Assembly (NCBI RefSeq): GCF_055900595.2
Contig: NZ_CM148325.1
Reading direction: 5' to 3' (one strand)
Length of the DNA stretch: 64,000 bases
Both the position numbers and the translations under genes were made by a program. Within the stretch, counting starts at the first letter, position 1. Each line of letters starts with the position of its first letter. Below are positions 35,986 to 59,800 of this stretch, piece by piece. The notes beneath the pieces were generated by a model. It had not been told where the DNA came from and ran no database searches. It saw only the letters and a program-made list of their open reading frames with translations.

Positions 35986-37725
35986 TTGACTGGAAAATTA
36001 TGTTGCAGGAACGAGAGGGCTGAGGAACAAAGCTTATCCCGGCGCTGTCCGTCCTTGCTGTCACTGACACTGATGTCTGTTTTATTATCGCCTTTATCTC
36101 TTCAGGCAGCGGATGTCCGGCGTAGCGGAGATGAAGCATTTATCATTCAGCAGCAACGTCAGGAAGCCCTTGAGCAACAACTGACGCCTTCGGCCCCTGA
36201 TGTTCGCCTTTCTGCACCTGGCTCTTTTGCCCGTAAGATTAATTTTCCTGTTGAAACGCCCTGTTTTCAGATTAAACAGACAGAACTGGAGGGGGCTGAT
36301 GCGTTACCACACTGGTTGCCTTTACAAAAAATCGCCAACGGGGCGGTCGGGCATTGCATGGGGGCGAAAGGAATTAATCTGCTGATGAGTACATTGCAGA
36401 ACCGTCTGGTCGATCATGGTTATGTCACTACCCGGGTTCTGGCACCTTCGCAGGATTTAAAAAGCGGTATCCTCCGGCTGGTTATTATTCCCGGTGTTGT
36501 GCGGCATGTGCGTCTGACACCGGACAGTGATGACTATATTCAGTTGTATTCCTCATTTCCGGCACACGAAGGCTCTCTGCTGGATTTACGGGACATTGAG
36601 CAGGGGCTTGAGAATATGCAACGACTGCCGGGTGTACAGGCTGATATGGAAATTGTGCCCGGTGAGCAGCCAGGGGAAAGTGACATTCTTATTACCCGCA
36701 AACAGGACAAATACTGGCGACTGGGGTTTTCGCTTGATGATTCAGGTACCCGCAGCACAGGGCGTTATCTCGGTGGTATAACATTTTCTCTGGATAATCC
36801 TTTTTCCCTGAGTGACCTGCTGTATGTTTCTGCCACCCATAATTTTCCACATTACGGGGGTAAGGGTAGTAAAAACTACACGGCCCATTACTCTGTGCCT
36901 TTCGGCTACTGGCAGTTTTCCGTCACCGCCAGTGATTACGATTACCATCAGACGGTAGCTGGTGCGGTTGAGGATTACCAGTACAGTGGCGAGAGTCAGA
37001 ATCTGGGCATGCAGCTGAGCCGGGTACTGCATCGTAACGGGACGCAGAAAACGGTGCTGACCTACGATGTTCAGGCCCGCAGGTCGCGTAACTACATTAA
37101 TGATACGGAAATCCAGGTACAGCGCCGGCAGACGGCGGCATGGCGACTTGGACTGCAGCACCGCCATTATATTTCGCAGGCCACACTGGATGCCGGCGTC
37201 AGCTGGCAACGGGGAACCCGCTGGTCTGGTGCACAACCGGCACCGGAAGAAACGTTCGGTGAGGCAACGGCGCTCAGTAAGATCCTGCAGTTGAATGCAT
37301 CCTTTAATCTGCCCTTTACACTGGCAGGGCAGCCCTTCAGTTATTCCTTCCGGTATCAGCGTCAGCTGAGCAATACCCCGCTGACCCCACAGGAACAGTT
37401 TGCCATCGGTAACCGCTGGACGGTTCGTGGTTTTGACGGGGAACGAACGCTGAATGCCAGTAACGGATGGTATATCCGCAACGACCTGACCTGGCGTACG
37501 CCACTGCCGGAGCAGGAGTTATATCTGGGAATGGATTACGGCGAGGTGGGGGGAGCCGGCAGTGAATACCTTGTGGGACGTCATCTGGCCGGTGGTGTTG
37601 TGGGGCTGAGGGGGCAACTGTTCAGTACGGATTATGACGTTTTCATCGGTCGTCCGTTTTCAAAGCCGGCGGGTTTTATGACGAGTGATGTGACAGCCGG
37701 TTTTAATCTGTTCCGGGATTTCTGA
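35986..37725 (+). CDS. cdiB: Two-partner secretion outer-membrane transporter CdiB (TpsB/FhaC family)
   Basis: Signal peptide then POTRA/ShlB-type regions; alternative start at 36073 ([12 protein letters not shown]). Confidence 0.85.
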
Positions 37726-37734
37726 GAAAGTTTC

Positions 37735-38172
37735 ATGCGTAACGGGAAATATGACGTTCTGAGTCCCCTGTATTCCGGTGAGCCGGTCAATGAGGCGGAA
37801 GTCCTGGGGGCGGCCGTCTGGCTGTGGATGCACTCCCCCCTGCATCGTGATGCGCCACTGCATACCCTGCCGGACCTGCTGCTGCCGGTGATTAAGCACC
37901 GACAGTATGTGGTGGCAACAGAGCAGGGGCGACCGGTTTTCTTCATGAGCCAGGCCTGGCTCAGCCCGGAGGCAGAGGCGCGTTATCTTACGCAGCCGGC
38001 AATTCTCATGCCTCAGTCGGACTGGAACAGCGGCGACCGGATGTGGGTCTGTGACTGGGTTGCCCCTTTTGGACACACTCCGGATATGAGTCGTCTTGTC
38101 CGGCAGGATATTTTTCCCCGTCTGTGCTGGCGTTCGCTGTACCACCGTGGGCAGCAGACCGGGTTACCCTGA
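37735..38172 (+). CDS. cdiC: HlyC/RtxC-family toxin-activating lysine acyltransferase (CdiC-type), C-terminal end replaced
   Basis: AVWLWMHSPLHRDAP and SGDRMWVCDWVAPFG closely parallel HlyC SWLWASSPLHRNWP and SGDRKWFIDWIAPFG; ORF ends inside the cdiA reading region. Confidence 0.75.
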   Translation: MRNGKYDVLSPLYSGEPVNEAEVLGAAVWLWMHSPLHRDAPLHTLPDLLLPVIKHRQYVVATEQGRPVFFMSQAWLSPEAEARYLTQPAILMPQSDWNSGDRMWVCDWVAPFGHTPDMSRLVRQDIFPRLCWRSLYHRGQQTGLP

Positions 38173-41100
38173 CGGCTGACGGACGTATTGAAAACAGTGG
38201 CAGTATCAGTGCGAAAACGGATGTGCATCTGGCGACAACCCGGGAGCTGCATAACAGTGGTTCTGTTTATGCGGGGCAGGATACGCAGATACAGAGTAAT
38301 GGTGTATTCACCCATACAGGCTCTGTGGCATCACGTCGCAACACCCGGATTCAGACAGCGCGTCTGACCGGCGGTGAGCGAAGTCTGCTCACCGCCGGGG
38401 TGAAAGATGACGGACGTCTGGCGGCAGCGGGCAACCTGACTGTCAGTACCACCGGCGAACTGGCGGCACACGGACAGGTTCTGTCCGGTGGGGACATGCA
38501 ACTGAAGGGGCAGGGGCTGGATTTAAGCAACAGCCGGATACAGGGACAACATACTGAGCTGGATGCAACCAGTGGAAATCTGTCCACACAGAATGCGCAA
38601 CTGAGTGCCGGTACGCTTTCCGCCCGGACTGCCGGGCAGTTCAGCAATAATGACGGCACGATAAATGCCGACACACTGCAGATATCAGCACAGAGCCTGT
38701 CAAACCACAGGGGTAAACTGATTCAGACGGGAACAGGGGATTTTTCGCTGAGTCTGCCGGGAAGCGTGGATAACCGGGAAGGGCTGCTTGCGGCAAATGG
38801 CGCGGTGCGTCTGGATGCACTGAGCCTTGATAATCGCAAGGGGAAAGTGCAGGCGGCGCAGTCAGGCAGTCTGCAGGTGAAGACAACCGGTGCCGTGGAT
38901 AACCAGCAGGGACGTCTGCTTGCCAGCAGTGACATCCTGATTAATACACAGGCGCTGAATAACGACAACGGACTGATTTCAGCTGCTGCCGGAACGGGCA
39001 GGATAAAAACACAGCAGTCTGTCAGCAATACGGAGGGACGAATGGAGTCCGCCGGCAGGCTGGATATTTCGGCAGGGAGTCTGAATAACCACCAGGGTAC
39101 GGTGGTGTCTGACGGGCTGTCCGTGACGCTGGATGGTGCGCTGGATAATACGTCCGGCAGACTGCTTTCACAGAAAACGCTGTCTGTGTCAGGCAGCGAA
39201 CTGGTCTCTGATGATGGTCTGATTCAGTCCGGCAGTGACATGACGCTGGATGTACAGGACGGGGTACTTAGTAACCGGAACACGAAAACACGGGGTGGTA
39301 TCAGCAGCGCCGGTACCCTGACAGTGCGGGCTGGTATGCTGAATAACCAGCAGGGATTTATGGTGGGTCAGAAGGATATGACCCTGAACGCCGGAACGCT
39401 TGATAACCGTCAGGGCGTGCTGGGGAGTCAGGCGTCATTACAGATATCGTCAGGTACGCTGATGAATCAGAAAGGTGCACTGAAGGCCGGGACGGATATG
39501 TTGCTGAGTGGTGGCGATGTCAGTAATCAGGAAGGGACGCTTGCCGCCGGCGGGGACCTGAATACTCACCTGAATGTGCTGGAAAATCAGCAGGGGACGG
39601 TGGTCAGCAACGGTAACAGCAGGCTGGATGTCACACGGTTTGATAATCAGGGCGGCAGACTGGTGGCACAGCAGTCACTGACCCTTTCCTCGACGGATAT
39701 CATCAACGATGCCAGCGGCCTGATACAGAGCGGTGCATCGCTGAATCTCCGTGCTGACACGCTGAGCAACCGTAACAGTGGTGACCGGGGCGGGGTTATC
39801 AGTCAGGGGCCGATGACGCTGAATGCCGGCACACTGGACAGCACTGCCGGTGTGCTTTTGTCGGGAGATGCTCTGTCCCTGACTGCAGGCGTGGTTAACA
39901 ATACATCCGGTCAGGTGGTGGCAAACGGTCTGCTCGGCTGGAACAGCCAGGCGCTGAACAATCAGTCAGGTCTTATTCAGGGGAAAGGCATCAGCATTAA
40001 TACCGCAGGCCAGACGCTGGATAACCGTGAGGGTGGCCGGCTGGTCAGTGAAGGTGAACTCCGTCTGCATACGGGAGGCCTGCAGAACAGCCAGGGACAG
40101 ATACAGTCTGTGGGCGACATTCTGTTCGACAGTGTACGGGGCGTTGTGGACAACGTCTCTGGTCTGATCCGCAGTGGTTCTGCCATTACGCTGAACGCCC
40201 TGCAGTTTATCAATCGCCACACGCAGAATACCGGCCAGGGGCTGGAAGCGCAGACAATACACATCACGACGCAGGACCTTGATAACCAGGAGGGCAGTAT
40301 TCTGGCAGACAGGGCGCTTACGGTTATGGCAGACAGGACGCTCAGTAATAATGATGGCGTGCTCTCTTCCGGCGCGACATTGTCTGTCAGTGGCCGTCAG
40401 CTGACGTTTTCGAACCGTGACGGCGTGGTTAAGGCCGGGCAGTCAGTATCTGTGGATGCCGGTCAGCTCGGTGGTGACGGGAAACTGCTTTCGCTGGGCG
40501 ATATGGCGCTGAAAAGTAACACAACGTTCAGTAACAGTGGTCAGACCATTGCGAACGGAAACCTTACGCTTTCCGTTAATGGCGATGTCTCTAATACCGG
40601 CAGCCTGCTGGCAGGCAGCCGGCTTGACCTGAACAGCATCCGCCTTGAAAACACAGAGAAAGGTGAAATCAGTGCCGGGCAGACCTGGCTTAACGTGACG
40701 GACACACTGCTGAACTGTGGGCTGATTGACGGGAAATATACGCATCTTCAGGCGAACACCCTGACGAATTCCGGTACCGGGCGAATCTACGGCGATGCTG
40801 TTGGTGTCAGTGCTGCCACATTTAATAATCTGGAAGAAAATGGCGTGGCGGCGACGCTGGCCGGTGAGAAAGCGAAGCGGGACCCGGCAGCACTGAATCA
40901 GGCCCGCGCAGAGCTTGAGGCAGCAGGAAAGCCGTTTACGGAACAGGATGTGGCACAGCGGGCCTACAATAACGGTATGGCGGCCTCAGGTTTTGGAACG
41001 GGAGGCAAATACCAGCAGGCGATACAGGCCGCAACGGCAGCGGTACAGGGACTGGTCGGCGGTAATCTGAGTGCAGCCCTGGCAGGTGGTGCAGCGCCGT

Positions 41101-42149
41101 ATATTGCTGAAATTATCAAACAGACCACCCCGGATGGTGCGGGACGTGTGGCAGCTCATGCAGTAGTGAATGCAGCCCTGTCTCTGGCACAGGGTAAGAA
41201 TGCTCTTGCTGGTGCCGCAGGCGCTGCCACCGGCGAGGTGGTGGGAATGATAGCCACACAGATGTACGGTAAGCCGGTGAGTGAACTGAGCGAGACAGAG
41301 AAACAGACGGTCTCCACGCTGGCAACGGTTGCTGCCGGTCTGGCCGGTGGTCTGGTGGGAGACTCAGGTGCTTCAGCGGTAGCCGGAGCACAGTCAGGTA
41401 AGACGACGGTTGAAAACAATATGCTGAACGTGATAGCCACTGAAACAGCGGCTAATACGGCAGCAGCAATAGCTGGTGCTACAGGTAATGCCAGTAGGGA
41501 TACCGGGAATGATAATAGCTGGGATATTGGTGGTGGTTGTGAAGGCTCACGGGAACAGTGTGCTGTACGTGACCCGAGTCGCGATGGTACCCGGGGACCG
41601 GGGCATGTGCTGAATGGCGACAATACAGACGAAAACAAACAGCCGAATCTGGGCAAAGACGTAGCGAGCGCTACGGATAAGGATAAAGCTGAGCTTGGTG
41701 GTGCAGGTGCTGGAACACCGGGTGGGTGGGGACCGGATAATGAAGAAAAAGCCCGTCATCAGGAGGTTCAGCAACAACGATTTGATGAACTGAGTAAAAT
41801 ATATGATAAAAGTCACCCGGTCGGAGAGTTAACAGTGGATGGGCAGACTATCAGGCAGAGTTCGGTAAGTAACCGTTATGGTACGACGAAAGTGTTTGAA
41901 AGCCAGAATCTGACGGATAAACAGATCCACAATTACGCACAACAGCTGGCAGGAGATACACCGCTGAAAGAGGTTCGGCCGGGGATCTATACTGCAAAGC
42001 TGAATAACGGAACATCGATCACGTTGCGGAATTTATCGTCGTCCCAAGAACAAACAGGCGCCAGATGGACTATTGATATTAGAGGGAATCAGCAATTGGC
42101 TGAAATTGCACATAAATACGGACGTCAGGTTGAAATTAAATTTAGGTGA
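38124..42149 (+). CDS. cdiA: CdiA contact-dependent inhibition effector, 5'-truncated (no TPS secretion domain), with VENN-delimited C-terminal toxin
   Basis: 1341 aa starting in FHA-type repeats with no signal peptide or TPS domain; pretoxin region ends ...AGAQSGKTTVENN (VENN at 41409..41420); about 240-aa CdiA-CT. Confidence 0.85.
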   Translation: MLAFAVPPWAADRVTLTADGRIENSGSISAKTDVHLATTRELHNSGSVYAGQDTQIQSNGVFTHTGSVASRRNTRIQTARLTGGERSLLTAGVKDDGRLAAAGNLTVSTTGELAAHGQVLSGGDMQLKGQGLDLSNSRIQGQHTELDATSGNLSTQNAQLSAGTLSARTAGQFSNNDGTINADTLQISAQSLSNHRGKLIQTGTGDFSLSLPGSVDNREGLLAANGAVRLDALSLDNRKGKVQAAQSGSLQVKTTGAVDNQQGRLLASSDILINTQALNNDNGLISAAAGTGRIKTQQSVSNTEGRMESAGRLDISAGSLNNHQGTVVSDGLSVTLDGALDNTSGRLLSQKTLSVSGSELVSDDGLIQSGSDMTLDVQDGVLSNRNTKTRGGISSAGTLTVRAGMLNNQQGFMVGQKDMTLNAGTLDNRQGVLGSQASLQISSGTLMNQKGALKAGTDMLLSGGDVSNQEGTLAAGGDLNTHLNVLENQQGTVVSNGNSRLDVTRFDNQGGRLVAQQSLTLSSTDIINDASGLIQSGASLNLRADTLSNRNSGDRGGVISQGPMTLNAGTLDSTAGVLLSGDALSLTAGVVNNTSGQVVANGLLGWNSQALNNQSGLIQGKGISINTAGQTLDNREGGRLVSEGELRLHTGGLQNSQGQIQSVGDILFDSVRGVVDNVSGLIRSGSAITLNALQFINRHTQNTGQGLEAQTIHITTQDLDNQEGSILADRALTVMADRTLSNNDGVLSSGATLSVSGRQLTFSNRDGVVKAGQSVSVDAGQLGGDGKLLSLGDMALKSNTTFSNSGQTIANGNLTLSVNGDVSNTGSLLAGSRLDLNSIRLENTEKGEISAGQTWLNVTDTLLNCGLIDGKYTHLQANTLTNSGTGRIYGDAVGVSAATFNNLEENGVAATLAGEKAKRDPAALNQARAELEAAGKPFTEQDVAQRAYNNGMAASGFGTGGKYQQAIQAATAAVQGLVGGNLSAALAGGAAPYIAEIIKQTTPDGAGRVAAHAVVNAALSLAQGKNALAGAAGAATGEVVGMIATQMYGKPVSELSETEKQTVSTLATVAAGLAGGLVGDSGASAVAGAQSGKTTVENNMLNVIATETAANTAAAIAGATGNASRDTGNDNSWDIGGGCEGSREQCAVRDPSRDGTRGPGHVLNGDNTDENKQPNLGKDVASATDKDKAELGGAGAGTPGGWGPDNEEKARHQEVQQQRFDELSKIYDKSHPVGELTVDGQTIRQSSVSNRYGTTKVFESQNLTDKQIHNYAQQLAGDTPLKEVRPGIYTAKLNNGTSITLRNLSSSQEQTGARWTIDIRGNQQLAEIAHKYGRQVEIKFR

Positions 42150-42505
42150 GCATTATGTTGACTGAAAATGAGTATCGTGAAACAGCTGACGCATCGGAGA
42201 TGCAAGCGTTAAGTGGTTTATGGGCTTACAGTATTCCAGATCATGTTGATAGCGCAGTATTCAGTTTTGATGAAAGGAAAAAACTCTTTTTCTGGATATT
42301 TGAGCGCCTTCTGAAAGAAGGGCGCATCAAACTCGCCAAGCACGGTAAGTTTCTGGAAGGCAGTGTTGACGAGCAGGTTGAGCGTTTCCGACAGGCATTT
42401 CCAAAAACAGAAGAAGAGATGGAAGACGGTATCTGGTTTTTTGATGAGAGCTGTCCGGGAGGAGCTGTCTGGGTGCTTGAAGATGGCTCTCTCGAATGGA
42501 CCTGA
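42146..42505 (+). CDS. cdiI: Putative CdiI immunity protein
   Basis: 119-aa acidic cytoplasmic ORF overlapping the cdiA stop; assignment by position only. Confidence 0.6.
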   Translation: MSIMLTENEYRETADASEMQALSGLWAYSIPDHVDSAVFSFDERKKLFFWIFERLLKEGRIKLAKHGKFLEGSVDEQVERFRQAFPKTEEEMEDGIWFFDESCPGGAVWVLEDGSLEWT

Positions 42506-43050
42506 TAAACCCGTTCATAGTGCAGGATGCGGTGCAGCAAGCGTATAACAACGATATGACAGCCTCAGGTTTTGGAACGGGAGGCAAATACCAGCAGGCG
42601 ATACAGGCCGCAACGGCAGCGGTACAGGGACTGGCCGGCGGTAATCTGAGTGCACCCTGGCAGGTGGTGCAGCGTCGTATATTGCTGAAATAATCAAAAA
42701 TACCCCCCCCGGACTGTGCGGGAAGTGTGGTAGCTCATGCCTTGGTGAATGCCGCACTGGCTGTGGCACAGGGAAATAACGCTCTTGCCGGTGCCGCAGG
42801 GGCTGCCACCGGCGAGGTGGTGGGAATGATAGCCACACAGATGTACGGTAAACCGGTCAGTGAACTGAGCGAGGCAGAGAAGCAGACGGTCTCGACACTG
42901 GCAACGGTTGCTGCCGGTCTGGCCGGTGGTCTGGTGGGAGACTCAGGTGCTTCAGCGGTAGCCGGAGCACAGTCTGGTAAGGCGGGGGGCGAAGGTAGTT
43001 GGTTCGTGAATTGGTTGGAATTCTGTAATATTAATAATAAAAATCGCTAA
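42496..43050 (+). pseudogene. Orphan cdiA-CT fragment (duplicate pretoxin region, toxin domain lost)
   Basis: Near-identical to cdiA pretoxin region (AYNN.M.ASGFGTGGKYQQAIQAATAAVQGL...[15 protein letters not shown]) but split by indels and in-frame stop at 42691; ends ...[17 protein letters not shown] instead of TTVENN. Confidence 0.7.
42703..42710 (+). repeat. C8 homopolymer at a frame-restoring indel in the orphan cdiA-CT
   Basis: TACCCCCCCC where the cdiA paralogue has CAGACCACCCC. Confidence 0.8.
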
Positions 43051-43072
43051 ATGGTTATTCGGGGATACTCGA

Positions 43073-43474
43073 TTGAATAAATTTATATATTTTCTGTTAG
43101 CAGGTATTTTATTTTCGGGACAGGTGGATGCAGCACGGGGAAGAAAACCCTGCTCGGGTGCTAAAGGTGGCATTTCACACTGTACGTCAGACGGACGTTT
43201 TGTCTGTAACGACGGAAGTCTGAGTCAGTCGAAACGCTTTTGTTCCGGTTATGGCGTGGCACCCGGCAAACGTCAGGTGAAATCACCTGTCACCACGAAG
43301 CCGGTTCAGAAGAAAAAATCAGTGGCTGTCCGGAAGGTGCCACAACCGTCGGTGGCTGAGAAAGATGAGTCTGTACCGGTCACTGAGCCGCGTAAACCCA
43401 CCTGTGCGCCGCTTTATATGGCCAGCAAACCCGGATTCACGCATCTGCCTATTTGTTCCGGTAATCAGTATTAA
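43073..43474 (+). CDS. Small secreted cysteine-containing protein of unknown function
   Basis: 133 aa; signal peptide [21 protein letters not shown]; 6 Cys in mature part; lysine-rich linker. Confidence 0.55.
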
Positions 43475-43708
43475 TCTGACACTGAAATAGCAGAGGCATC
43501 TGTGCTCAGCCTGCAGTTAACCCTGTATTGGCGAGCATCATAAAGCCGGACATCCTTCCGGGTATAAATATTTCCGGAGGGCGTTAATCAGAAATATTCA
43601 GTTACGGAGAAGGAAAATAAAGGAAAGTCATGGCAGGAAGAAAAAAAAGATGATAATGCAGCGGGATTTGTCCTGATTTTAGTTTGCGTTATTCTCTGGG
43701 GGATTTAT

Positions 43709-44875
43709 GTGGCGGTCAGGACGCTGATAAACCTTAATGAGCGCTTTATTGATGCAGTATCGAATCCGGCAGGTATTATTGGTTTGTTTTTTGGTTTGCT
43801 TACCGTATTTGCAATTTTATTTCGTTTTTTTATTTACCGGAGACTCAGAAAGAAAACAGCAGCATTTGAGCAGGCCGTTTCAGAGCTGGTTCAGAGAGAA
43901 CGGGATTTTAATGAAACTGTCAATGCCGCTATAGCCCGGGGAATACGACAGGAAAAGGAGCAGCTTGCCAGACGTCGTGAGGAATTTCATACCACCAGAA
44001 AGAAGGCCGGCCGTGCAATGCAGCGGATTGTTGATTCTGCCTGGAAATTTAAGGCGAAGACTCTGCTGGCTGGTGTAACGATTAATAACTGGCAAAGCAA
44101 ATATGACCAGCTTCGTAAGGAAAGAGAGGCTTACGCTGCTGTCAGTGAGAAAATTGCCTTTCTTAACCTGGAAGATAATTCTGACTGGGAGAGTGTCAGG
44201 CAACAGTTTCTGGACAAAGTGGCATTGCTGGAAAAAGCGCAGGAAGAAAAGGAATATCAGGCAGAGCTTAAGCGTCAGATGCGTGAAGAAAAAGAGCGTC
44301 AGGATGAACTTGACCGGCGCCAGCGGGAAGCGGAAGAGGAAGAACGGCGTCTTGCTGAGCAGCAGAAACTGATTGAGGAGGCGCTGCGCGCAGCAGAAGG
44401 GGCTCACAGGGAGGAGTTAGAGAAACAACGCCTGGAGCTGGAACAGAAAATTCAGGAAGCGCATGCGCAGTATGAACGTGCTAAATCCATGGCTCAGCTT
44501 ACGAAACAGGGGCATGTTTATATCATTTCGAATATTGGTTCGTTTGGTGAGGATGTCTTTAAAATTGGCATGACCCGACGGCTGGAACCCATGGACAGGG
44601 TCAAAGAGTTAAGTGGTGCTTCTGTTCCGTTTGATTTTGATGTTCACGCCATGATTTCCTGTGATGATGCGCCCGCGCTGGAAAAAACACTTCATGACAG
44701 TCTGGAAAAATACCGCATCAACAGGATTAACCTGCGTAAAGAATTTTTCCGCGTGAAGCTTGAGAAAATCATTAATGAAGTGGAGCGTCACCACGGGCAG
44801 GTGGAATATGTGGCTGACCCGGCAGCACTGCAGTATCTGCAGAGTCTGGAGTGCGCGGAAAATGAAGCTGCCTGA
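43709..44875 (+). CDS. Membrane-anchored coiled-coil protein with C-terminal T5orf172/GIY-YIG-like domain (DUF4041-type architecture suspected)
   Basis: N-terminal TM helix GIIGLFFGLLTVFAILFRFFIY; long charged coiled coil; C-terminal GHVYIISNIGSFGEDVFKIGMTRRLEPMDRVKELS...FDFDVHAMI typical of T5orf172. Confidence 0.65.
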   Translation: MAVRTLINLNERFIDAVSNPAGIIGLFFGLLTVFAILFRFFIYRRLRKKTAAFEQAVSELVQRERDFNETVNAAIARGIRQEKEQLARRREEFHTTRKKAGRAMQRIVDSAWKFKAKTLLAGVTINNWQSKYDQLRKEREAYAAVSEKIAFLNLEDNSDWESVRQQFLDKVALLEKAQEEKEYQAELKRQMREEKERQDELDRRQREAEEEERRLAEQQKLIEEALRAAEGAHREELEKQRLELEQKIQEAHAQYERAKSMAQLTKQGHVYIISNIGSFGEDVFKIGMTRRLEPMDRVKELSGASVPFDFDVHAMISCDDAPALEKTLHDSLEKYRINRINLRKEFFRVKLEKIINEVERHHGQVEYVADPAALQYLQSLECAENEAA

Positions 44876-45068
44876 CAATCAGTGTTCTGATTTTATTCCG
44901 GCCGGATATAACAGAAGGGATATCTGCACATATCCTGCAGCATGGTTCACGGTATTCCGGTCATGTTAATGATTCTGTTTTTTTATTTCTGAATAAAATG
45001 ACACCCACGATATAACGTCGTGGGTGTCGGTGATGATTATTTTTTTGTTCACAGATTAAGGTGCGTTT

Positions 45069-46856
<1,788 letters not shown>

Positions 46857-46921
46857 TACCAGACCATTTCTTTATTCCGGGCTTTCACCATACTGTTATT
46901 ATCAGGTTTATTTAATTCGCC

Positions 46922-47227
46922 ATGAACCCGTTATTTAACGATATTCAGATGCGTCTTTTTTATCTGAACCACTCTCCGTACTCCTGGCACTGGAATGTCA
47001 GATTCAGACCTCAGGAAGCCGTATATATTGGCAGCGATACCTGTCATATCACCATTACCTGTAATCAGTCTGGTTTTCATTTAACCCGGGACGGACAACG
47101 GGTATTCACTGAGCGTTATATCAGAAACCTTAATGAGCTGTTACCGGTTCTGAAACGGCGGTGGGATGTGACACCGGCAATCATCCGCGCAGTGGAATAC
47201 CTTTCCCGGGTACCGGTATCACACTGA
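46922..47227 (+). CDS. Small hypothetical protein upstream of ImpA_N-domain gene
   Basis: 101-aa ORF, 43 bp upstream of next gene on same strand. Confidence 0.4.
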   Translation: MNPLFNDIQMRLFYLNHSPYSWHWNVRFRPQEAVYIGSDTCHITITCNQSGFHLTRDGQRVFTERYIRNLNELLPVLKRRWDVTPAIIRAVEYLSRVPVSH

Positions 47228-47269
47228 TGTTCTTTCCGTAACTGTTAATCATGATTTAATACAGCAACA

Positions 47270-48643
47270 TTGAATCTGCCGATGACTTCTGAAGTGAAAC
47301 TGAAAACCGGTGGTGACCCCCGGTCATTACCGGATTATGCTGCCCTGCGTGATGAAATCAGCAAACTGACCCACCCGGCACGCCCGGATGTGGACTGGCG
47401 TCATGTGGAGACGCTCTGCCTGCGTCTGTATGAACACAATGGCGTGGAATTACAGACAGCATCCTGGTACACCATCGCCCGGATGCATACAACAGGGTTA
47501 AGTGGCCTGAATGAAGGGCTGGCTCTGATTGTGGCGCTGACCCGGCATCACTGGTCAGTGATGTGGCCGCTGAATACACACGCCCGGCTGGAAATTATTA
47601 CCGGTCTGTTCAACCGTCTGCAAAAAACGCTCCGGGCCATGCCACCGGACGACCGTGACAACCTGCCCCTGCTGTATCAGACCGAAACATTTCTGAAGGC
47701 ACTGAGTGACACACTGGCCCGGCACGAACTTAAACAGAGCAGTAAAGTGGCTTTACCGGAAGCCATGGTGAAGGGATATATCACCCGTCTGGAAAATCAG
47801 CCAGTGCAGGACGAAGCGTCGTCTCCGGTAACCCTTCCTGCTCAGGCACTCCGGTCTGATGCTCCGGATGTACAGGGACATCAGCCCCTGCCGCACTCCC
47901 GTCTGGTGTATGTTGTTTCTGAAACAAAAACAGAGCCCACATCCTCCCTTCAAAACTCCCCGCCCACGTTTCTGAAACCGTTTGTGACTGGTGTCTGTGC
48001 GGCATTGCTGGCGGTCTGCGTGGCCATTCCGGGATGGCAGTATCTGGCACAGCCATCACCGGCAGAGCAGCAACTCAGGGCGCTGCTGACACCACCACCG
48101 GATGTGCTTTCAGCAGACCAGATGACACAGCTCAGCAGAACACCCTCACTGTTAAATCATGCGTCAGAGTGGATAACCCTTTCCGGTCAACAGATAACGC
48201 GACTGACAGAATTACCCCTGGCATACAACCTGCAGTGCAGTGCGCAGCTACTGCAGCAACTGATGGTACTTTTCCCCGACAATCCCCGGGTACAGGAAAT
48301 GGTGGATAACTGGCAGAAGAGCGTAAGGAGTCGTGCGCTCCCGGAAGAGGCGATGACGGGCTGGAATGAAGGCATGACCCGCTTACAGCAGCTGGCTGAA
48401 CGCCTGAACCGTCTGGATGAACAGCGGGGAAAATACATGACGGTCAGTGAACTGAAAACGGAGGTGTTTGGCATCATGCAGGCTTTTAACCGGCACATAC
48501 CGGCAGAAGAGCGGTTACGTCGCTATGATGAAGCCCGTAACCAGAATGGCAGTGAACAGCAACAAAAACAGATGGAAAATGCCCTGATGGAACTGTTGAA
48601 CCGCTACTATTTTTTAACACGGAATAGTTGTGTGGATATATGA
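47270..48643 (+). CDS. ImpA N-terminal domain protein with central TM helix (TssA/VasL-like)
   Basis: N-terminus GGDPRSLPDYAALRDEISKL...DVDWRHVETLCLRLY...LNEGLALIVALTRHHW resembles ImpA_N domain; TM segment FVTGVCAALLAVCVAI. Confidence 0.55.
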   Translation: MNLPMTSEVKLKTGGDPRSLPDYAALRDEISKLTHPARPDVDWRHVETLCLRLYEHNGVELQTASWYTIARMHTTGLSGLNEGLALIVALTRHHWSVMWPLNTHARLEIITGLFNRLQKTLRAMPPDDRDNLPLLYQTETFLKALSDTLARHELKQSSKVALPEAMVKGYITRLENQPVQDEASSPVTLPAQALRSDAPDVQGHQPLPHSRLVYVVSETKTEPTSSLQNSPPTFLKPFVTGVCAALLAVCVAIPGWQYLAQPSPAEQQLRALLTPPPDVLSADQMTQLSRTPSLLNHASEWITLSGQQITRLTELPLAYNLQCSAQLLQQLMVLFPDNPRVQEMVDNWQKSVRSRALPEEAMTGWNEGMTRLQQLAERLNRLDEQRGKYMTVSELKTEVFGIMQAFNRHIPAEERLRRYDEARNQNGSEQQQKQMENALMELLNRYYFLTRNSCVDI

Positions 48644-48784
48644 GAAGATATTTAACCTTTTGCAAGGTAATTTCCCTAAGGTGCGATAGGGTACAGAATA
48701 TTCTTTATTCTAGGATGGTTTTATTTTGTATGTTGGCAATTTCAATGAATATTTTACATTTAAGTATGGAATAAGGAGTGTTGA

Positions 48785-50491
48785 ATGAAGCTTTCATCAT
48801 TTTTTGTGGAAAACTTTAAATGTATCGGTAGAGAGGTACACATTAAAATAGATGATATTATTATTTTAATTGGGCAGAATAATGTAGGAAAATCAACAAT
48901 CCTTGATGCTTATGAGAAATTTGCTGCTCTTGGAAAAGAAAAGGTCTTAGATATTAGCCATTTTCATAATGAAGATGTTTCAAAGCCAGTGATCATGACA
49001 GGAGTATTTACAGATATTACTGTAGAAGATGAAACGGCAATAGGAAAAAAATGGAAGCACAATGATCCAGTTTATGGTGAGTGTATTAAGTTCAGATGGG
49101 TATGGAATGCACCCGGTGAGTCGGCTAAAAAAGAGGCATTTGATCCAACTAAAGGACAAGGTGAATTTGTAGCTGGTGGCTTGGGCGGGTTTGATAGCAT
49201 AATTAAAAGCCGTATTCCTAAGCCACTTCGAATTAAACCTGATGATTCAGTCCTGAAAACACAGGAGCTTATAATCGAAATATTGAAAAGTAATGTGAAG
49301 GAATACCTCAGTAATGGGCCTGATTCCAAGGCTGATGTGATAGCCAAAATTGAATCCCTAACAAGCGCTCTGGTTGAGTCATCTAAAGCAGAATTTGATC
49401 GATTGCTTGGTCGTATAACAGACAATATAGAATCGATTTTTCCAGGGGTTATTATGGAATTGGTTCCTCAGTCGAAAGATCCTATTGATGAGAAGATTAT
49501 CGCTTCAGCATCCTATTTAAAGGTTCGAAACCCGACTAGTCGTTCAACTATGCTTGAACTCCAAGGAACCGGGCTTAAGCGTTCTTTACTGTGGTCTGCA
49601 TTGTCAGTACTTTCGCAAGAAGGAAAAAGCAAAAAAGGTGATGTTGTCAAGGAGTGTAATATCCTGCTTATAGATGAGCCAGAGGCTTTTTTGCATCCAC
49701 CAACAATCCGTGGCGCACGAGAGGCTTTGTATACATTTGCAGCCAATAATCCTGGTTGGCAGGTAATGGCTACCACGCACTCTCCAGTATTCATCGATTT
49801 GTCGAAAGATCATACGACAATTATTCGGGTTGATAAAGATAGCCAGAACAAATACATCTCAACAAACGATATTGGGTTTGATAAGGATGAGAAAGTCAAT
49901 CTTAAAATTGTTCGAGCATGTAATCCAATGGTAAATGAGTTTTTTTTCTATAATAAAATTGTTCTTGTGGAGGGCCCTACTGAAAAAATTGTACTGAATC
50001 ATCTTCAGGATACTCTGGGGATAGAGATGCATGTAATCGATTGTCTTGGTAAAGGTAATATACCTATGTTTGTTAAAATTCTTAATCAGTTCGATGTTCC
50101 TTATGTTGTTATTCATGATTCTGACTCACCTAAAATCCGTCGTAAAGGAAAATATGTGAACAACGGGATGTGGACTATAAATACTTTGATTAGAAATGAA
50201 GTTGCTAAATCAAAAAAAGGACGTATTTTTACTCAGGTGCCGCACTTTGAAGGCGAATTTTTTGGCGAAACTCTTACCTCTGGTAAGGTATCAAATGTGC
50301 TCGAGGTTCTCCAGAACGTTACGGCTGAAGAATACACTCGCTTAATAAGCGTTTATAGCCGTATTTTAAATGACGCAGAAGAATCATTATTTACTGGGAC
50401 ACTTGAGTCTTTTATGGCTAAAATTAATGCATATACGGCAGATAAAACTGCATTAACAGATCCAGAGTTATGGGGATTATCGGGTTTATAA
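48785..50491 (+). CDS. OLD-family ATPase-Toprim nuclease (class 1 OLD-like, stand-alone)
   Basis: 568 aa; Walker A GQNNVGKST; ABC-type ATPase core (LLIDEPEAFLHP); C-terminal Toprim (VLVEGPTEKIVL ... VVIHDSDSP); gene is AT-rich. Confidence 0.8.
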   Translation: MKLSSFFVENFKCIGREVHIKIDDIIILIGQNNVGKSTILDAYEKFAALGKEKVLDISHFHNEDVSKPVIMTGVFTDITVEDETAIGKKWKHNDPVYGECIKFRWVWNAPGESAKKEAFDPTKGQGEFVAGGLGGFDSIIKSRIPKPLRIKPDDSVLKTQELIIEILKSNVKEYLSNGPDSKADVIAKIESLTSALVESSKAEFDRLLGRITDNIESIFPGVIMELVPQSKDPIDEKIIASASYLKVRNPTSRSTMLELQGTGLKRSLLWSALSVLSQEGKSKKGDVVKECNILLIDEPEAFLHPPTIRGAREALYTFAANNPGWQVMATTHSPVFIDLSKDHTTIIRVDKDSQNKYISTNDIGFDKDEKVNLKIVRACNPMVNEFFFYNKIVLVEGPTEKIVLNHLQDTLGIEMHVIDCLGKGNIPMFVKILNQFDVPYVVIHDSDSPKIRRKGKYVNNGMWTINTLIRNEVAKSKKGRIFTQVPHFEGEFFGETLTSGKVSNVLEVLQNVTAEEYTRLISVYSRILNDAEESLFTGTLESFMAKINAYTADKTALTDPELWGLSGL

Positions 50492-51507
50492 AATTCTCCA
50501 TAAGGGATTTTAAATCAATGAGTTTATTTTTATGCAGATAGAGTCTTTGAGTGAATTGAAATATTAGTACTGTCGACCTGCTGTTTTTGTAATATGATGG
50601 ATTTGGTAGGGGGATGTAATTTTTGTGATAGTGGTTAATATTAAAATGTTTTAGTGTGGATTTTTAGAGTAAAATGATTTAAGTAGTGTTCATATAAAGC
50701 AAGTTTGTTTTTTTTGGGGGGGTGATATTGATAGTAATGTGTGATATATTTTATTGAAATTATTTGTTGTGTGTTGTGAGAATAACAGAGTGTGATTGAT
50801 AAGTATGACGTAAAGAATGAATTATTGGTTCGCTGTATCAGAACAGGTAGGTTATGTTTTATTGACGTTATTTCTAACGAAACTAATTAACTCTGAGTTG
50901 CTTTTGCGTTATCGTATATTTGATCGTTTTTCGTTATAAGAGAAAAGTTTTAGATATATAATTCTTTGAGTGATGTTGAAGTTGGTTTTATCTGTCAGGA
51001 AGTATTGACTATATATGAACATACTCAACGATGCTGCAACGAAAAGAAAATTACAACTGTCCAGTTAGGCAGGAAACTTAATGGCAGGTATGCAGATATG
51101 ATTGCTGAGTTAAAAGAAACAGTAGAGATGAGGGGGGAGGGGTAATTTCTTTTGAGATGGATATATTGAATTCTTTTAATGATGCGGATGAATATCACGG
51201 ACGTGTTAAACTGGAATTGGATATACCTGCTTCAGATATATTATATTGCCATGATTTTATTGATTCAAAACATGTAAACTCCTGGCTGGTTGAACCACAT
51301 GAGTGGGTGGTTATTAATCGTTCTCTTACTGGGATTGTTACAGTGCCAGTATCAGCAATAAAAATCTCTTATTGAAAAAATTATGTATGTAACTTACTTT
51401 ATATATATAAGGGTAAAAACAGTCCCGGTAATAATTAAATATTATTTAATGTTTATTGCTATGTATTGGAGATATAAGCGGGTTTCTTTTGCATAAAGTA
51501 AAAATAA

Positions 51508-52438
51508 ATGAATGATAATTTTTTAACGGAGAAAGTCCTTACTGGAGAGAATGTTCTGCGTGCAGCAATTGCTCGTATTGAGTGGGTTTTTGAAACATTT
51601 CCATCAGTTTGTCTCTCTTTTTCCGGTGGTAAAGATTCCACCGTGCTTTTCCATCTTTTGGCTGATGTGGCCCGCAGGAAAAAACGTCGTTTCTCTGTAC
51701 TGTTCATTGACTGGGAGGCTCAGTACCAGTGCACCATTGAACATATTCAGAAGATGCGGGAAATGTACCATGATGTGACGGATACCTTTTACTGGGTGGC
51801 ACTTCCCCTGACCACGGTAAACGGTGTCTCGCAGTTTCAACCGGAATGGATATGCTGGGAGTCGGGCGTGAAGTGGGTTCGCCAGCCACCGGAGGGGGCC
51901 ATTACAGATATGGCGTATTTTCCCTTTTACCGGTATGCCATGACGTTTGAAGAATTTGTTCCGGCATTTTCTTCCTGGTTTGCAGACAATAAATGTGGTG
52001 TGGCAGTACTGACCGGTGTCCGTGCGGATGAGTCCCTTAACCGGTTCATGGGACTGGTATCCCAGCGCAAACTGAGATACGCCGATGATAAGCCCTGGAC
52101 CACGGCATCGCCTGAAGGGTTTTACTACACCATGTATCCGCTGTATGACTGGAAAACTCGTGATATCTGGATATATCACACCAGAACCCGTGCCATCTAC
52201 AATCCCCTGTATGATCTGATGTACCGTGCCGGCGTACCGTTACGCAACATGCGTGTCTGTGAACCTTTTGGTCCTGAACAACGTAAGGGACTGTGGCTTT
52301 ACCATGTTCTGGAGCCGGATACCTGGGCCAGGATGTGTGAGCGGGTGTCAGGGGCTGCCAGCGGGGCACTTTATGCCAATGAAAGCGGTGCTTATTTTGC
52401 CCTGCGTAAGCGCATATCAAAACCAGCCCATCATACCT
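51508..52438 (+). pseudogene. PAPS reductase-like (phosphoadenosine phosphosulfate reductase family, IbrA-like) gene, 3' end truncated by IS911
   Basis: PP-loop motif SFSGGKDSTVLFHLL; ORF runs from native sequence into IS911 left end at 52439. Confidence 0.7.
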
Positions 52439-52510
52439 TGAAGTGGTTTACTGAATTTGGCCACCTGAACAGAGGTGATATGCTCACCTCAGAACAACAC
52501 AGGTGCCATA

Positions 52511-53658
<1,148 letters not shown>

Positions 53659-53802
53659 CTCGGTGGCCAGTTTTTGTTGACCACTTCATATCTGTAAGAC
53701 TCTCATAAAGAATGATTTCTGGTGCCGGACCCTCTCCTTCAGTCCTAACAAACCCCGGCACTATGAACGTTATCTGCAGCGTATGAAAGAAAGGAGGAAG
53801 GA

Positions 53803-54441
53803 ATGGGGGATTCTGTGACAGCGGAGGTACTGAGTGACATGATTCGTCAGTACTTCAGCCAGGAACGACCAGAAGAAGAGACCATACAGGCTCTGAATCA
53901 TCTGCGCAGGGTGCTTCATGAGGTCAGTCCATTTGCACAGGAGCCTGTGGACTGTGTGCTGTGGGTGAAAGCAGATGAGGTGGTGGCCAATGATTATAAT
54001 CCTAATGTCATGGCGCCGGGTGAGAAAAAACTGCTGAAACATTCGCTGGAGCAGGACGGGTTCACGCAGCCTGTGGTTGTCTCGGAAGAGAAGGAGCATT
54101 ATCTGGTGGTGGATGGTTTTCATCGTCAGTTACTGGGCAGGGAAGCAGGTACGGGAAAACGTCTGAAGGGCTGGTTGCCAGTGACCTGTATTAATCCGGA
54201 GAGAAAGGGACAGGCCGCACGCATTGCCGCGACCATTCGACATAACCGGGCCAGGGGAAAACACCAGATAACTTCAATGTCTGATATTGTCAGGGATCTT
54301 TCACGTCTGGGCTGGACGGATGAACGCATTGGCATGGAGCTGGGTATGGACCAGGATGAAGTTCTCAGGTTGAAACAGATTAGCGGGCTGACGGAGCTGT
54401 TTCAGGAAGAGGATTTCAGCCCGGCATGGACGGTTCGCTGA
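53803..54441 (+). CDS. ParB-like nuclease domain protein (IbrB-like)
   Basis: 212 aa; ParB N-terminal-like segment (VVANDYNPNVMAPGEKKLLKHSLEQDGFTQPVVV...YLVVDGFHR). Confidence 0.65.
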   Translation: MGDSVTAEVLSDMIRQYFSQERPEEETIQALNHLRRVLHEVSPFAQEPVDCVLWVKADEVVANDYNPNVMAPGEKKLLKHSLEQDGFTQPVVVSEEKEHYLVVDGFHRQLLGREAGTGKRLKGWLPVTCINPERKGQAARIAATIRHNRARGKHQITSMSDIVRDLSRLGWTDERIGMELGMDQDEVLRLKQISGLTELFQEEDFSPAWTVR

Positions 54442-56876: not shown

Positions 56877-59800
56877 ATGAAATTCACTGAAGATACTCGG
56901 GTAAAAATCCCCGTAATCCTCCACCTGATACGGTTGGGATACTACTACCTGTCCCTTAAAGAACAACGCTGGGACAAAGAAACCAACATCTTCCCTGACC
57001 TCTTTACTGCTGCGATTGGCCGAATAAACCCCGGACTTGCGCCAGACGACATCGGACGCCTGTTAAAAGACCTCACGCTGCTTCTCGACAACGATGATCT
57101 GGGCCGCGCCTTCTTCGAAAAACTCAGTGATCGTTCCGGTATCAAACTGATCGACTTTGATAACTTCAACAACAACAGTTTCCATGTCGTCACCGAATTG
57201 ACCTGCGAAAACGATGATGAAGAATTCCGCCCGGACATCACGCTGCTGATCAACGGCATGCCGCTAATCTTTATCGAAGTGAAAAAACCCAATAATCGGG
57301 AAGGCATCGTCGCAGAACGCAATCGCATCAACGAACGCTTTAAAAACCCCAAATTCAAACGCTTCGCCAACATCACCCAGTTCATGATCTTCTCCAATAA
57401 CATGGAGTATGACGACAGCGACCCGGAGCCGATTCAAGGGGCATTCTACGCCAGCAGCTCTTACAGCAACCCGGTATTCAACTACTTCCGCGAAGAAGAA
57501 CTCTTCAACCTGACCAACTTACTGAAACCGCTGTCAGACGAAACCGAGATCGCCGTCCTGAAAGACAACAACCTGGAAGTCATCCGTACCAACCCGGAAT
57601 TCCAGACCAACAAAGATCACAACTGCCCGACTAACCGCCTTTGCACCGCGCTGTTGAGCCGGGATCGGCTGGCATTTATTCTGCGCTATGCGCTGGTGTA
57701 TGTCGCCGAACCGGGCGGAATCCAGAAACACATCATGCGCTACCCGCAGCTCTTCGCCACTAAAGCAATCGAGCGCAAACTGAACGCTGGTGTGAAGAAA
57801 GGCATCATCTGGCACACCCAGGGCAGCGGGAAAACCGCGCTGGCTTACTACAACGTGCGCTTCCTGACAGATTACTTCCAGAATCAGCAGGTGATCCCCA
57901 AATTCTACTTTATTGTTGACCGTCTGGATCTGCTCCAGCAGGCGCAGCGCGAGTTCACCGCCCGTGGCTTAATCGTTCACCTTATCGACTCCCGCGAAGC
58001 CTTCACTCGCGATATCAAAGCGACGCAGGCGCTGCACAACCACCACGGCAAAGCGGAAATCACCGTCGTCAACATCCAGAAATTCCGCGATGACCCGGAC
58101 GTCGTCACTACCAAAGACTACGATATCAACATCCAGCGCGTGTACTTCCTCGATGAAGTCCACCGCAGCTACAACCCCAAAGGAAGTTTCCTGGCGAACT
58201 TAAGCCAGTCGGACACCAACGCCATCAAAATTGGCCTGACCGGTACGCCTCTGCTGGGCACAGACTACAACTCCCGCGACCTCTTCGGCGACTACATCCA
58301 CAAATACTACTACAACGCCTCCATTGCCGACGGCTACACGCTGCGCCTGATCCGCGAAGAGATCGCCACCAACTACCGAATGATCCTGCAACAGGCGCTA
58401 AAAGAGGTGGAAGTCAGAATGGGCGATGTGGATCGCAAAGACATCTACGCCCATCCCAGCTTCGTCAAGCCGATGTTGAACTACATCATCACCGACTTTG
58501 CCAAAAGCCGGGGCGCGCTGAATGATGACACCATCGGTGGCATGGTGATTTGTGACAGCTCTGAACAGGCCAAACAGATGTTTGAGATATTCAACACTGA
58601 CTACGCCGAATCGCCCACCACCGTTTACCACATCCACACCAAAGAAACGCGGAAAATCAAACGCGCCGCCCTGATCCTACACGACGTCGGCAGCAAGCAG
58701 GAACGCAAAGAGTGGGTGGAGCAATTCAAAGCGGGAGAGATTGACCTGCTGTTCGTCTACAACATGTTGCTCACTGGCTTTGACGCCAAACGGCTAAAAA
58801 AACTCTACCTCGGGCGGGTGATCAGAAAGCACAACCTGCTCCAGGCGCTGACCCGCGTCAACCGAACCTACAACCACTTCCGCTACGGCTATGTGGTGGA
58901 CTTCGCCGACATCCGCCAGGAATTTGACGCCACCAACAAAGCCTACTTCGAAGAGCTACAGGCTGAACTGGGCGATGAAATGGAGCATTACTCCCGCCTG
59001 TTCAAATCAGCGGATGAGATCCGCGAAGAAATCGAACATATCAAAGACGTTCTGTTTAGCTTTGATACCGAAAACGCGGAAATCTTCACTGACCAGATAA
59101 ACCAGATCCAGGACCGGGAAACCGCGCTGGTACTGAAGAACGCGCTGACCGACGCCCGCAGCCTTTACAACCTGATTCGCCTCCAGGGCAACACAGAGTT
59201 TCTCCAGGCGCTGGATTTCAACAAACTCAACATCCTCTACCGCGAAGCCAGCCGCCGCCTCGACTTACTCAACCTGAAAGCGGATCTGGTACAGGGCGTT
59301 GACCTCTCCGGCCTGCTGAACCGGGCGCTGGAAGAGGTGATCTTTGAATTCCATAAAGTGGGCGAAGAAGAGCTGGTACTGGCCGACGAGCTGAAAGAGA
59401 CGCTGCGCCGCACCCGCGAAGCGCTGGCCGCCAACTTCGACCAGCAGGACCCGCAGTTCGTCAGCCTGAAAGACGAACTGGAGCGTCTGTTTAAGAAAAA
59501 GAAACTCAGCGAAGTCACCCAGCAAGAAATGGTTGCGAATATCGGCACACTCAATAAAATTCATGGCCGCATCAAAGAGCTAAACCGCCAAAACAACCTG
59601 CTGCGCCAGAAATACCGGGGCGACGTGAAATACGCGCGTACCCACAAACGCCTGCGTGAGCGCGGCGGCCTGAGCGAGCCGGAGCGTAAAATCTTCGAAG
59701 CACTGCTTAGCGTTAAGCTGGATGCAGATGAAAAAGTGCTGAACAACAGCCAGATACTGAACAATGAAAGCTATTTTGAGCGGCATATGGAGTCATGTGT

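Follow-up and report, generated by a model that had tools for sequence, protein, structure and literature searches.

A tagA gene and its small upstream neighbour as a probable remnant of a T6SS-1 locus whose core site holds a CDI cassette

TagA proteins and the identity of the ImpA_N/VasL gene

TagA is a membrane-associated protein that binds the long TssA capping the growing sheath of a type VI secretion system (T6SS). When the sheath has grown across the whole cell, TagA is located at its distal end, where it stops polymerization and holds the sheath in its extended state, and ΔtagA mutants have over-long, bending or sliding sheaths, fewer non-canonical contractions and intermediate killing (PMC6745524, PMC7545191, PMC6450956, PMC7896307, bioRxiv 10.1101/2025.02.08.637259). 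It is an accessory protein that is non-essential for the T6SS (PMC7545191, PMC6450956, PMC7896307, bioRxiv 10.1101/2025.02.08.637259). The published definition of TagA, a class B TssA-like protein, is an ImpA_N domain, a hydrophobic region and a VasL domain (PMC6745524). Vibrio cholerae TagA/VasL (VCA0121), the founding member of PF12486, belongs to the same class; it has an ImpA_N domain, a hydrophobic region and a membrane localization, it limits sheath over-extension, and it is distant from E. coli TagA (19.3% identity) (PMC6745524). The published binding partner of TagA is the long TssA (PMC6745524, PMC7545191, PMC6450956, PMC7896307), which in EAEC is EC042_4540, an ImpA_N plus VasJ protein that acts as the T6SS cap and chaperone. 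The two proteins have the N-terminal ImpA_N domain in common, whereas TagA lacks VasJ and carries a membrane segment and VasL instead.

The closest described relative of the gene analyzed here encodes EAEC TagA, EC042_4550, of the Sci-1 (T6SS-1) system of strains 17-2 and 042, for which the name TsmA ("T6SS sheath membrane anchor") has also been proposed. The sci1 cluster of EAEC 042, which lies side by side with the aai T6SS, is ordered tssB, tssC, tssK, tssL, tagL, hcp, clpV, …, vgrG, tle1, tli1, PAAR, …, tssM, tssA, …, tssF, tssG, tssJ, tssE, and tssE is followed by genes for a YdcA-like protein, a GIY-YIG nuclease and a NERD/UvrD helicase, a 101-aa ORF, the ImpA_N/VasL gene, ibrA, ibrB and perC. 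EC042_4550 is the sole ImpA_N plus VasL gene of this cluster, and we equate it with the TagA protein of Santin et al. 2018. Its locus tag was obtained by counting from tssA, which is EC042_4540 (PMC6745524), and the string "EC042_4550" did not occur in the searchable literature.

Both + strand ORFs reported in a preliminary description of this DNA, 46922-47227 (101 aa) and 47270-48643 (457 aa), are present in the 64-kb stretch that we analyzed (hereafter, the window). The 457-aa length of the larger ORF is read from a TTG codon; the ATG at 47282 is the conserved tagA start, being used in relatives and the first possible start in EAEC 042, and gives a protein of 453 aa (Table 1). The preliminary description had recognized an ImpA_N-like N-terminus, and this region indeed matches the PF06812 profile (residues 12-113, E 1.6e-17) with 64.2 bits against a cut-off of 26.9, well beyond chance; it is also the most conserved part of the protein among 100 homologues. 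What that domain reading had missed was the VasL domain (PF12486) and the TagA identity. The VasL match (E 3.2e-37, 128 bits against a cut-off of 27.3) covers positions 2-146 of the 147 in the profile, thus fitting the domain founded on the V. cholerae protein end to end, and is the stronger and more diagnostic of the two. Between ImpA_N and VasL lies one hydrophobic segment (peak mean Kyte-Doolittle 2.16; residues 229-252 when counted from the ATG), which on hydropathy alone is the sole stretch with a mean value above 1.6 and which fits the previous label of "membrane protein". Across 452 aa, its full length, the syntenic EC042_4550 is 92% identical to the window protein, with the same three-part architecture and a different 8-residue C-terminal tail. 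Since an ImpA_N domain, a single hydrophobic segment and a VasL domain are combined with this level of identity to EC042_4550, we conclude that the protein is TagA (TsmA).

Table 1. Features of the T6SS-1 site in the window
Feature	Position	Strand	Basis
Retained left flank of the Sci-1 locus: ECs1377-family, small hypothetical and DUF4222 genes	34148..35833	+	blastn
CDI cassette in place of the T6SS-1 core	35834..43073	+	Pfam, blastn map, junction alignments
YdcA-family small protein, EC042_4546 orthologue, first gene of the retained right flank	43073..43474	+	homology
GIY-YIG/T5orf172 nuclease, EC042_4547 orthologue	43709..44875	+	Pfam, PADLOC PD-Lambda-1 (E 5.5e-89)
NERD + UvrD-like helicase, EC042_4548 orthologue	45069..46856	+	PADLOC C3a187 NERD+UvrD (E 2.5e-139)
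101-aa ORF, EC042_4549 orthologue, conserved upstream neighbour of tagA	46922..47227	+	homology, constraint, synteny
tagA orthologue, 453 aa	47282..48643	+	homology to EC042_4550, Pfam domains, synteny
ImpA_N domain (PF06812) of TagA	47303..47608	+	Pfam, residues 12-113 of the 457-aa reading
Single hydrophobic (membrane-anchor) segment of TagA, FLKPFVTGVCAALLAVCVAIPGW	47966..48037	+	Kyte-Doolittle
VasL domain (PF12486) of TagA	48185..48616	+	Pfam, residues 306-449

Since ImpA_N is common to both proteins, we considered whether the gene could instead encode the core TssA, the baseplate/cap subunit, rather than the accessory TagA. The best NCBIfam matches of the window protein are TssA equivalogs (TIGR03362 and TIGR03363), and its PDB sequence matches, all weak, are to TssA N-terminal domains alone (6hs5, 6rju, 6g7b). 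However, both NCBIfam scores fall far below the equivalog cut-offs (83.2 against 230.1 bits and 39.8 against 160.85 bits, respectively), there is no match to VasJ (PF16989), and the C-terminus is VasL. Moreover, the true tssA of orthologous clusters is a separate gene of 532-537 aa encoding ImpA_N plus VasJ, and 042 TssA had no tblastn match in the window at E<=1e-3. The score cut-offs and the domain content therefore rule out core TssA, and we give this identity practically no chance of being correct.

The mechanism that we propose for TagA is carried over from what has been published on the EAEC protein, with which it is 92% identical. [quoted passage not shown]

In RefSeq/PGAP, tagA genes are split into three pseudogene fragments even when they are intact, and in relatives the annotation mislabels a ~130-nt tagA stretch at the hydrophobic segment as "POTRA domain-containing protein". 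This fragmenting masks a characterized T6SS component and prompts findings of an "orphan domain".

The T6SS-1 site and the cassette in place of its core

The window tagA occupies the same site as its EAEC counterpart, with the same 5' neighbours (EC042_4546-4549 orthologues) and the same ibrA, ibrB and perC genes on the 3' side. The two loci differ in that EAEC 042 carries the cognate tssB…tssE core, with TssA and TssM, where the window carries a contact-dependent-inhibition (CDI) cassette, and in that an OLD nuclease gene lies directly 3' of tagA in the window as opposed to two hypothetical genes in 042. On the left, the retained flank is 92.6% identical by blastn to positions 1124-2812 of the 042 region (L003), and this homology stops 64 bp before 042 tssB, whose start is at L003 position 2876. 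The cassette that follows consists of an ops element, cdiB, a gene for an HlyC-like acyltransferase, a truncated cdiA, cdiI (DUF596) and an orphan PT-VENN fragment, such that 7.2 kb of CDI genes in the window stand at the position of the ~27-kb tssB…tssE core in 042. Alignments across the two junctions showed both to be clean, without an IS or a repeat.

Homology to 042 and to E. coli SC418 resumes at 43074, and by blastn window positions 43074-48581 match the 042 stretch that begins with the gene next to tssE and takes in tagA. The retained right-hand tail therefore consists of the EC042_4546-4550 orthologues. Within it, the GIY-YIG nuclease is a 388-aa short form compared with 414 aa in 042, with 97% identity and an alignment that begins at 43643, and the NERD/UvrD helicase is likewise 97% identical to the 042 protein. 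Over 33000-53000 the window is mosaic, with an H22-like left part joined to an SC418-like right part, and no complete E. coli genome was found to cover at least 80% of this interval.

The preliminary description had placed the gene outside any T6SS cluster, and for the 64-kb window this is true. A Pfam sweep of all large ORFs detected no T6SS core gene, the sole T6SS domains being those of TagA; the other large ORFs belong to IS elements, the allantoin pathway, an ABC transporter, a SPATE autotransporter, asr genes, a type I restriction-modification system and the like. Likewise, when EAEC 042 proteins, 26 from Sci-1 and 5 from aai, were searched against the window by tblastn, the orthologues of EC042_4546-4550 alone matched, while the 21 tssB…tssE and 5 aai proteins had no match in the 64 kb. 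The reason that tagA stands outside a cluster is that the cassette has replaced the core at the orthologous site. A "T6SS remnant" had been one of the two origins first suggested for the gene, and the presence of an EAEC tagA orthologue at the same site, with a CDI cassette between Sci-1 flanks that end at 35833 and resume at 43074, bears this out. Since the tssB…tssE core was replaced at the same site, the retained tail is a remnant, and we consider it very probable that tagA and its 101-aa neighbour are what is left of a T6SS-1 whose core gave way to a CDI cassette. T6SS-1 cores and CDI cassettes are thus alternative occupants of one chromosomal site.

The neighbourhoods of homologues are consistent with this origin. 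In the closest relative, the T6SS-positive strain SC418, tagA is 99.7% identical (4 nt apart), and the tagA block lies directly after tssM-tssA-tssF-tssG-tssJ-vgrG-tssE. The two most widespread exact tagA alleles, P0023 and P0031, are T6SS-linked in 16 of the 16 places listed, in the order tssA-tssF-tssG-tssJ-vgrG-(effector/immunity)-tssE-small ORF-tagA, and tagA also closes the T6SS cluster in SC418, STEC307, SC407 and a Salmonella-labelled contig (L025). A comparison of this kind had been proposed at the outset, with a recent duplication out of complete T6SS clusters as the outcome that would speak against an orphan. Homologues are indeed found consistently in complete clusters, but the window copy is a relic of cluster loss and not a recent duplicate. 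Duplication is ruled out, as there is one tagA copy per locus, at the orthologous site.

To place the locus in its population, we searched 5426 complete E. coli genomes. Any match to tagA was present in 1520 genomes, of which 453 had tagA at a coverage of at least 80% and 1067 had fragments alone, such as a 130-bp piece in O157:H7, O26, O111 and O145. Junction counts, which are approximate in that diverged variants may escape, came to 358 genomes for the NCTC86-type junction (an IS3-family remnant abutting the NERD helicase, with the core gone), 29 for the CDI/ydcA junction seen in the window, 42 for the 042-type tssE/ydcA junction and 37 for the direct tssE-small ORF-tagA junction of the P0023 type; on this basis, about 387 of the 453 genomes with a near-complete tagA have no adjacent core. 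The NCTC86 locus is at the same site as that of the window and retains the same tail (NERD helicase, small ORF, tagA, ibrA/ibrB) after loss of the core, but its core was lost beside an IS3-family remnant and its tagA and small ORF are both frameshifted, in contrast with the CDI cassette and the intact pair in the window. Orphan tagA is thus the usual, majority state of the locus in sequenced E. coli. Both the identity of tagA and its orphan state are already known and ordinary in this species, and since the gene is the orthologue of an experimentally studied sheath anchor in the majority state of its locus, it carries little discovery value.

Flanking defence genes and the decay of tagA

The second origin first suggested for the gene was recruitment to another role, possibly together with the defence genes on either side. 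TagA and the 101-aa protein might, for example, serve as a membrane-anchored scaffold or sensor for the flanking nucleases or for CDI, in a role independent of a T6SS. The GIY-YIG and NERD-UvrD genes lie directly 5' of the pair and the OLD nuclease gene directly 3', all on the same strand, and the GIY-YIG/NERD/small ORF/tagA block is kept in both 042-type and CDI-type loci. In addition, a perfect RfaH ops element (35898-35909) precedes cdiB, and every gene from there to tagA points the same way; the element could drive read-through transcription, so the remnant genes may still be transcribed. In EAEC, RfaH/ops-dependent transcription of sci1 extends to the 4548/4549 junction (bioRxiv 10.1101/2025.02.08.637259). 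The published ops2 motif (GGTAGNNT) was sought between the EC042_4547 and EC042_4548 orthologues, but neither the window nor 042 contains it exactly, and a promoter and terminator scan of 44800-48900 gave counts no higher than those of shuffled sequence.

However, the commonest T6SS-positive arrangement has tssE followed by the small ORF and then tagA, without GIY-YIG or NERD genes, which indicates that these genes are a secondary insertion in the lineage of 042, SC418 and the window and that their linkage to tagA is itself secondary. For EAEC, the literature counts EC042_4547 and EC042_4548 among the accessory genes of sci1 (bioRxiv 10.1101/2025.02.08.637259). The slot 3' of tagA also differs from strain to strain, holding OLD, Zorya II, Kiwa/Hachiman-like genes, a KAP NTPase, an AAA protein or hypotheticals. 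It thus looks like a defence-island hotspot that adjoins tagA, a slot that gathers anti-phage systems just 3' of the gene, and not like a system that includes it. Consistent with this, PADLOC-DB v2 has no family for TagA or the 101-aa protein, neither of which matches PHROGs, whereas their neighbours match PD-Lambda-1, NERD+UvrD (C3a187) and Old. Furthermore, decay has reached tagA and the small ORF in NCTC86, WR3-3, A2 and FORC_041, strains in which the NERD helicase is still annotated as intact. The secondary linkage, the variable 3' slot, the lack of a PADLOC match and the repeated inactivation of tagA once the core is gone together argue against co-option, and we regard recruitment of the pair to the flanking defence genes or CDI as very improbable. 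Only slightly better, in our estimate, are the prospects of the idea that the intact pair is kept in some core-less strains for a T6SS-independent job, possibly as a membrane-anchored module of CDI or the neighbouring nucleases that is expressed by RfaH-assisted read-through from the CDI operon.

We compared intact and broken tagA copies at 12 loci, a small sample collected by nucleotide search, a method that does not favour intact genes. The gene was intact in all four T6SS-positive loci (SC418, 042, STEC307 and SC407) and in three of the eight core-less loci (the window, H22 and M1), a contrast with a one-sided Fisher value of about 0.07 by hand calculation. Four independent types of lesion account for the broken copies: a frameshift at codon 146 in NCTC86 and WR3-3, a nonsense codon at 337 in A2, an IS3 insertion in GmM062, and a stop plus a 3' deletion in FORC_041.

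Given that tagA and the 101-aa ORF are both intact in the window, the orphan TagA could be in use in trans, anchoring the sheath of a T6SS with a compatible long TssA encoded outside the window, either a second T6SS-1 or a T6SS-2 or -3. Several T6SSs per strain are frequent in E. coli, as the adjoining sci1 and aai clusters of EAEC 042 illustrate. The overall tagA dN/dS of 0.16-0.38 and the three intact copies among the core-less loci fit such a use, as does the lack of private substitutions at conserved sites: compared with 100 full-length homologues, the window TagA has none outside the variable C-terminal tail. In contrast, NCTC86 is reported to have a T6SS-2 cluster (bioRxiv 10.1101/2025.02.08.637259), and yet its tagA and small ORF are both frameshifted, at a locus whose junction type is present in 358 genomes; a tagA that is broken despite a T6SS-2 argues against retention of the T6SS-1 gene for the benefit of another system. 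Other core-less strains, with their independent lesions by nonsense mutation, IS insertion and deletion, point in the same direction. Finally, as only 4 nt separate the window allele from a T6SS-positive one, selection is not needed to account for its intactness. Taken together, these observations make use in trans unlikely, although less so than recruitment to a T6SS-independent role.

Returning to the remnant, the intactness of the window tagA is most likely due to recent loss of the core or to recombination rather than to a new job, because the gene is so close to the T6SS-positive SC418 allele. The 4 substitutions between the two (2 non-synonymous and 2 synonymous) are too few for a lineage test of selection. 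Without TssA, TssM and a sheath, which the locus does not encode, TagA could not act, and we infer that tagA is most likely functionless but undegraded in the source strain.

The small upstream ORF

The ORF directly upstream of tagA starts with ATG and is 95% identical to EC042_4549. Its dN/dS of 0.04-0.15 (about 0.07) at dS values of up to 0.6 indicates that it is a real and strongly constrained gene. It always lies ~55 nt 5' of tagA, even beside homologues with 70-82% TagA identity, and in T6SS-positive loci it is located between tssE and tagA.

Searches of Pfam, NCBIfam, PADLOC and PHROGs returned no match to the 101-aa protein, and no functional characterization of the ORF was found in the searchable literature. 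A word-indexed search yielded 31 clusters of homologues, all of them Escherichia-labelled, while a profile search with HMMER, run exhaustively over 1.84 billion representatives, yielded 19 matches, the remote ones (P0153, P0159 and P0160) lying on contigs of less than 1 kb without gene context. The family thus appears to be restricted to Escherichia-type clusters. A confident AlphaFold2 model of the protein (pLDDT 85.6) has one helix, five strands and two helices, and a structure search with this model gave no informative neighbour.

As the conserved upstream partner of tagA, the 101-aa protein is the only part of these findings with potential for novelty. We tentatively suggest, as a possibility that is more likely wrong than right, that TagA has in this Escherichia-restricted protein an unrecognized partner within the distal-end complex of T6SS-1; the protein is a cheap candidate for a missing part of that poorly defined complex. 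It is probably dispensable for T6SS-1, since the very common, T6SS-positive P0023-type allele carries a premature stop at codon 22 of the 101-aa ORF.

Mosaic ancestry of the region upstream of tagA

When we compared window positions 42650-47282 with the core-less locus of E. coli H22 (L004) and the T6SS-positive locus of SC418 (L001), this region proved to be a recombination mosaic. The CDI/ydcA junction of the window was 99.6% H22-like, while the window tagA, the accessory sheath anchor gene, was 99.7% SC418-like and just 94.7% H22-like. Given this H22-like junction and SC418-like tagA, a recombination breakpoint must lie somewhere between ~43450 and 47282. The GIY-YIG gene in this interval encodes a 388-aa short form in the window, as in A2 and GmM062; the protein is 414 aa long in 042, SC418, and M1, and the H22 gene carries an internal stop. 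The tblastn alignment obtained with the 042 protein begins at window position 43643, upstream of the window ORF start.

The CDI locus is itself degenerate, with cdiA present as a 1341-aa ORF lacking the TPS and signal regions; its counterpart in H22 and A2 is ~7.2 kb. A perfect match to the RfaH-recruiting ops element (GGCGGTAGCGTG) lies inside the CDI-specific insert, and cdiB begins 77 nt downstream of it. Since all genes from cdiB through tagA to the OLD nuclease are on the + strand, RfaH-assisted read-through from the ops element into the T6SS remnant is conceivable.

Annotation of tagA and its upstream small ORF

RefSeq/PGAP splits the intact tagA ORFs of SC418, EAEC 042 (L003), and H22 into three pseudogene fragments labeled "ImpA family N-terminal", "POTRA domain-containing", and "VasL domain-containing". 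A Pfam search found no POTRA domain in the TagA protein, and the ~130-nt "POTRA" fragment corresponds to the hydrophobic-segment region of tagA. This piece is all that remains of tagA in many O157:H7, O26, O111, and O145 genomes.

In the T6SS-positive loci of P0023 type (L005-L012), codon 22 of the small ORF is a premature stop, and a 68-aa product is called. Elsewhere, the ORF is under strong purifying selection, yet this T6SS-positive allele with the stop is very widespread. This suggests that the small-ORF protein is either dispensable for T6SS-1 or functional in a shorter form.

Variable cargo between tagA and ibrA

Comparison of the tagA-ibrA slot with its equivalents in 042, H22, and three further E. 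coli loci (L030, L032, and L033) indicates a hotspot for variable cargo, mostly anti-phage defence genes. The slot holds an OLD-family nuclease in the window and SC418, and type II Zorya in STEC307. SC407 has KwaB-like and HamA/helicase genes there, H22 and FORC_041 carry a KAP NTPase and an AAA protein, respectively, and the 042 slot contains hypotheticals. The window ibrA is split by an IS3-family element and is ~171 bp short relative to SC418 and 042. Further cargo of the island comprises a SPATE autotransporter, the asr genes with their IS insertion, and a type I restriction-modification system.

Coordinates of features in the window and in comparison loci
Feature	Locus	Position	Detail
SPATE autotransporter	window	25137-29012	1291 aa (Peptidase_S6)
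asr genes	window	29162-33809	anaerobic sulfite reductase; IS insertion, rve ORF 30813-31718
ops element	window	35898-35909	+ strand
CDI locus	window	37735-43050	HlyC-like acyltransferase, cdiA, cdiI (DUF596), orphan PT-VENN fragment, in this order
GIY-YIG gene	window	43643-44875	PD-Lambda-1-like; ORF itself 43709-44875
tagA	window	47282-48643	+ strand
tagA equivalent	L001	15483-16844	
tagA equivalent	L003	34071-35438	
tagA equivalent	L004	13632-14993	
small ORF	L005-L012	9641-9946	
tagA-ibrA slot	window	48644-51500	
ibrA	window	51508-53688	PAPS-reductase-like
IS3-family element	window	~52441-53688	IS911-like
ibrB	window	53803-54441	partner of ibrA
type I restriction-modification system	window	56877-62774	complete (hsdR/M/S)
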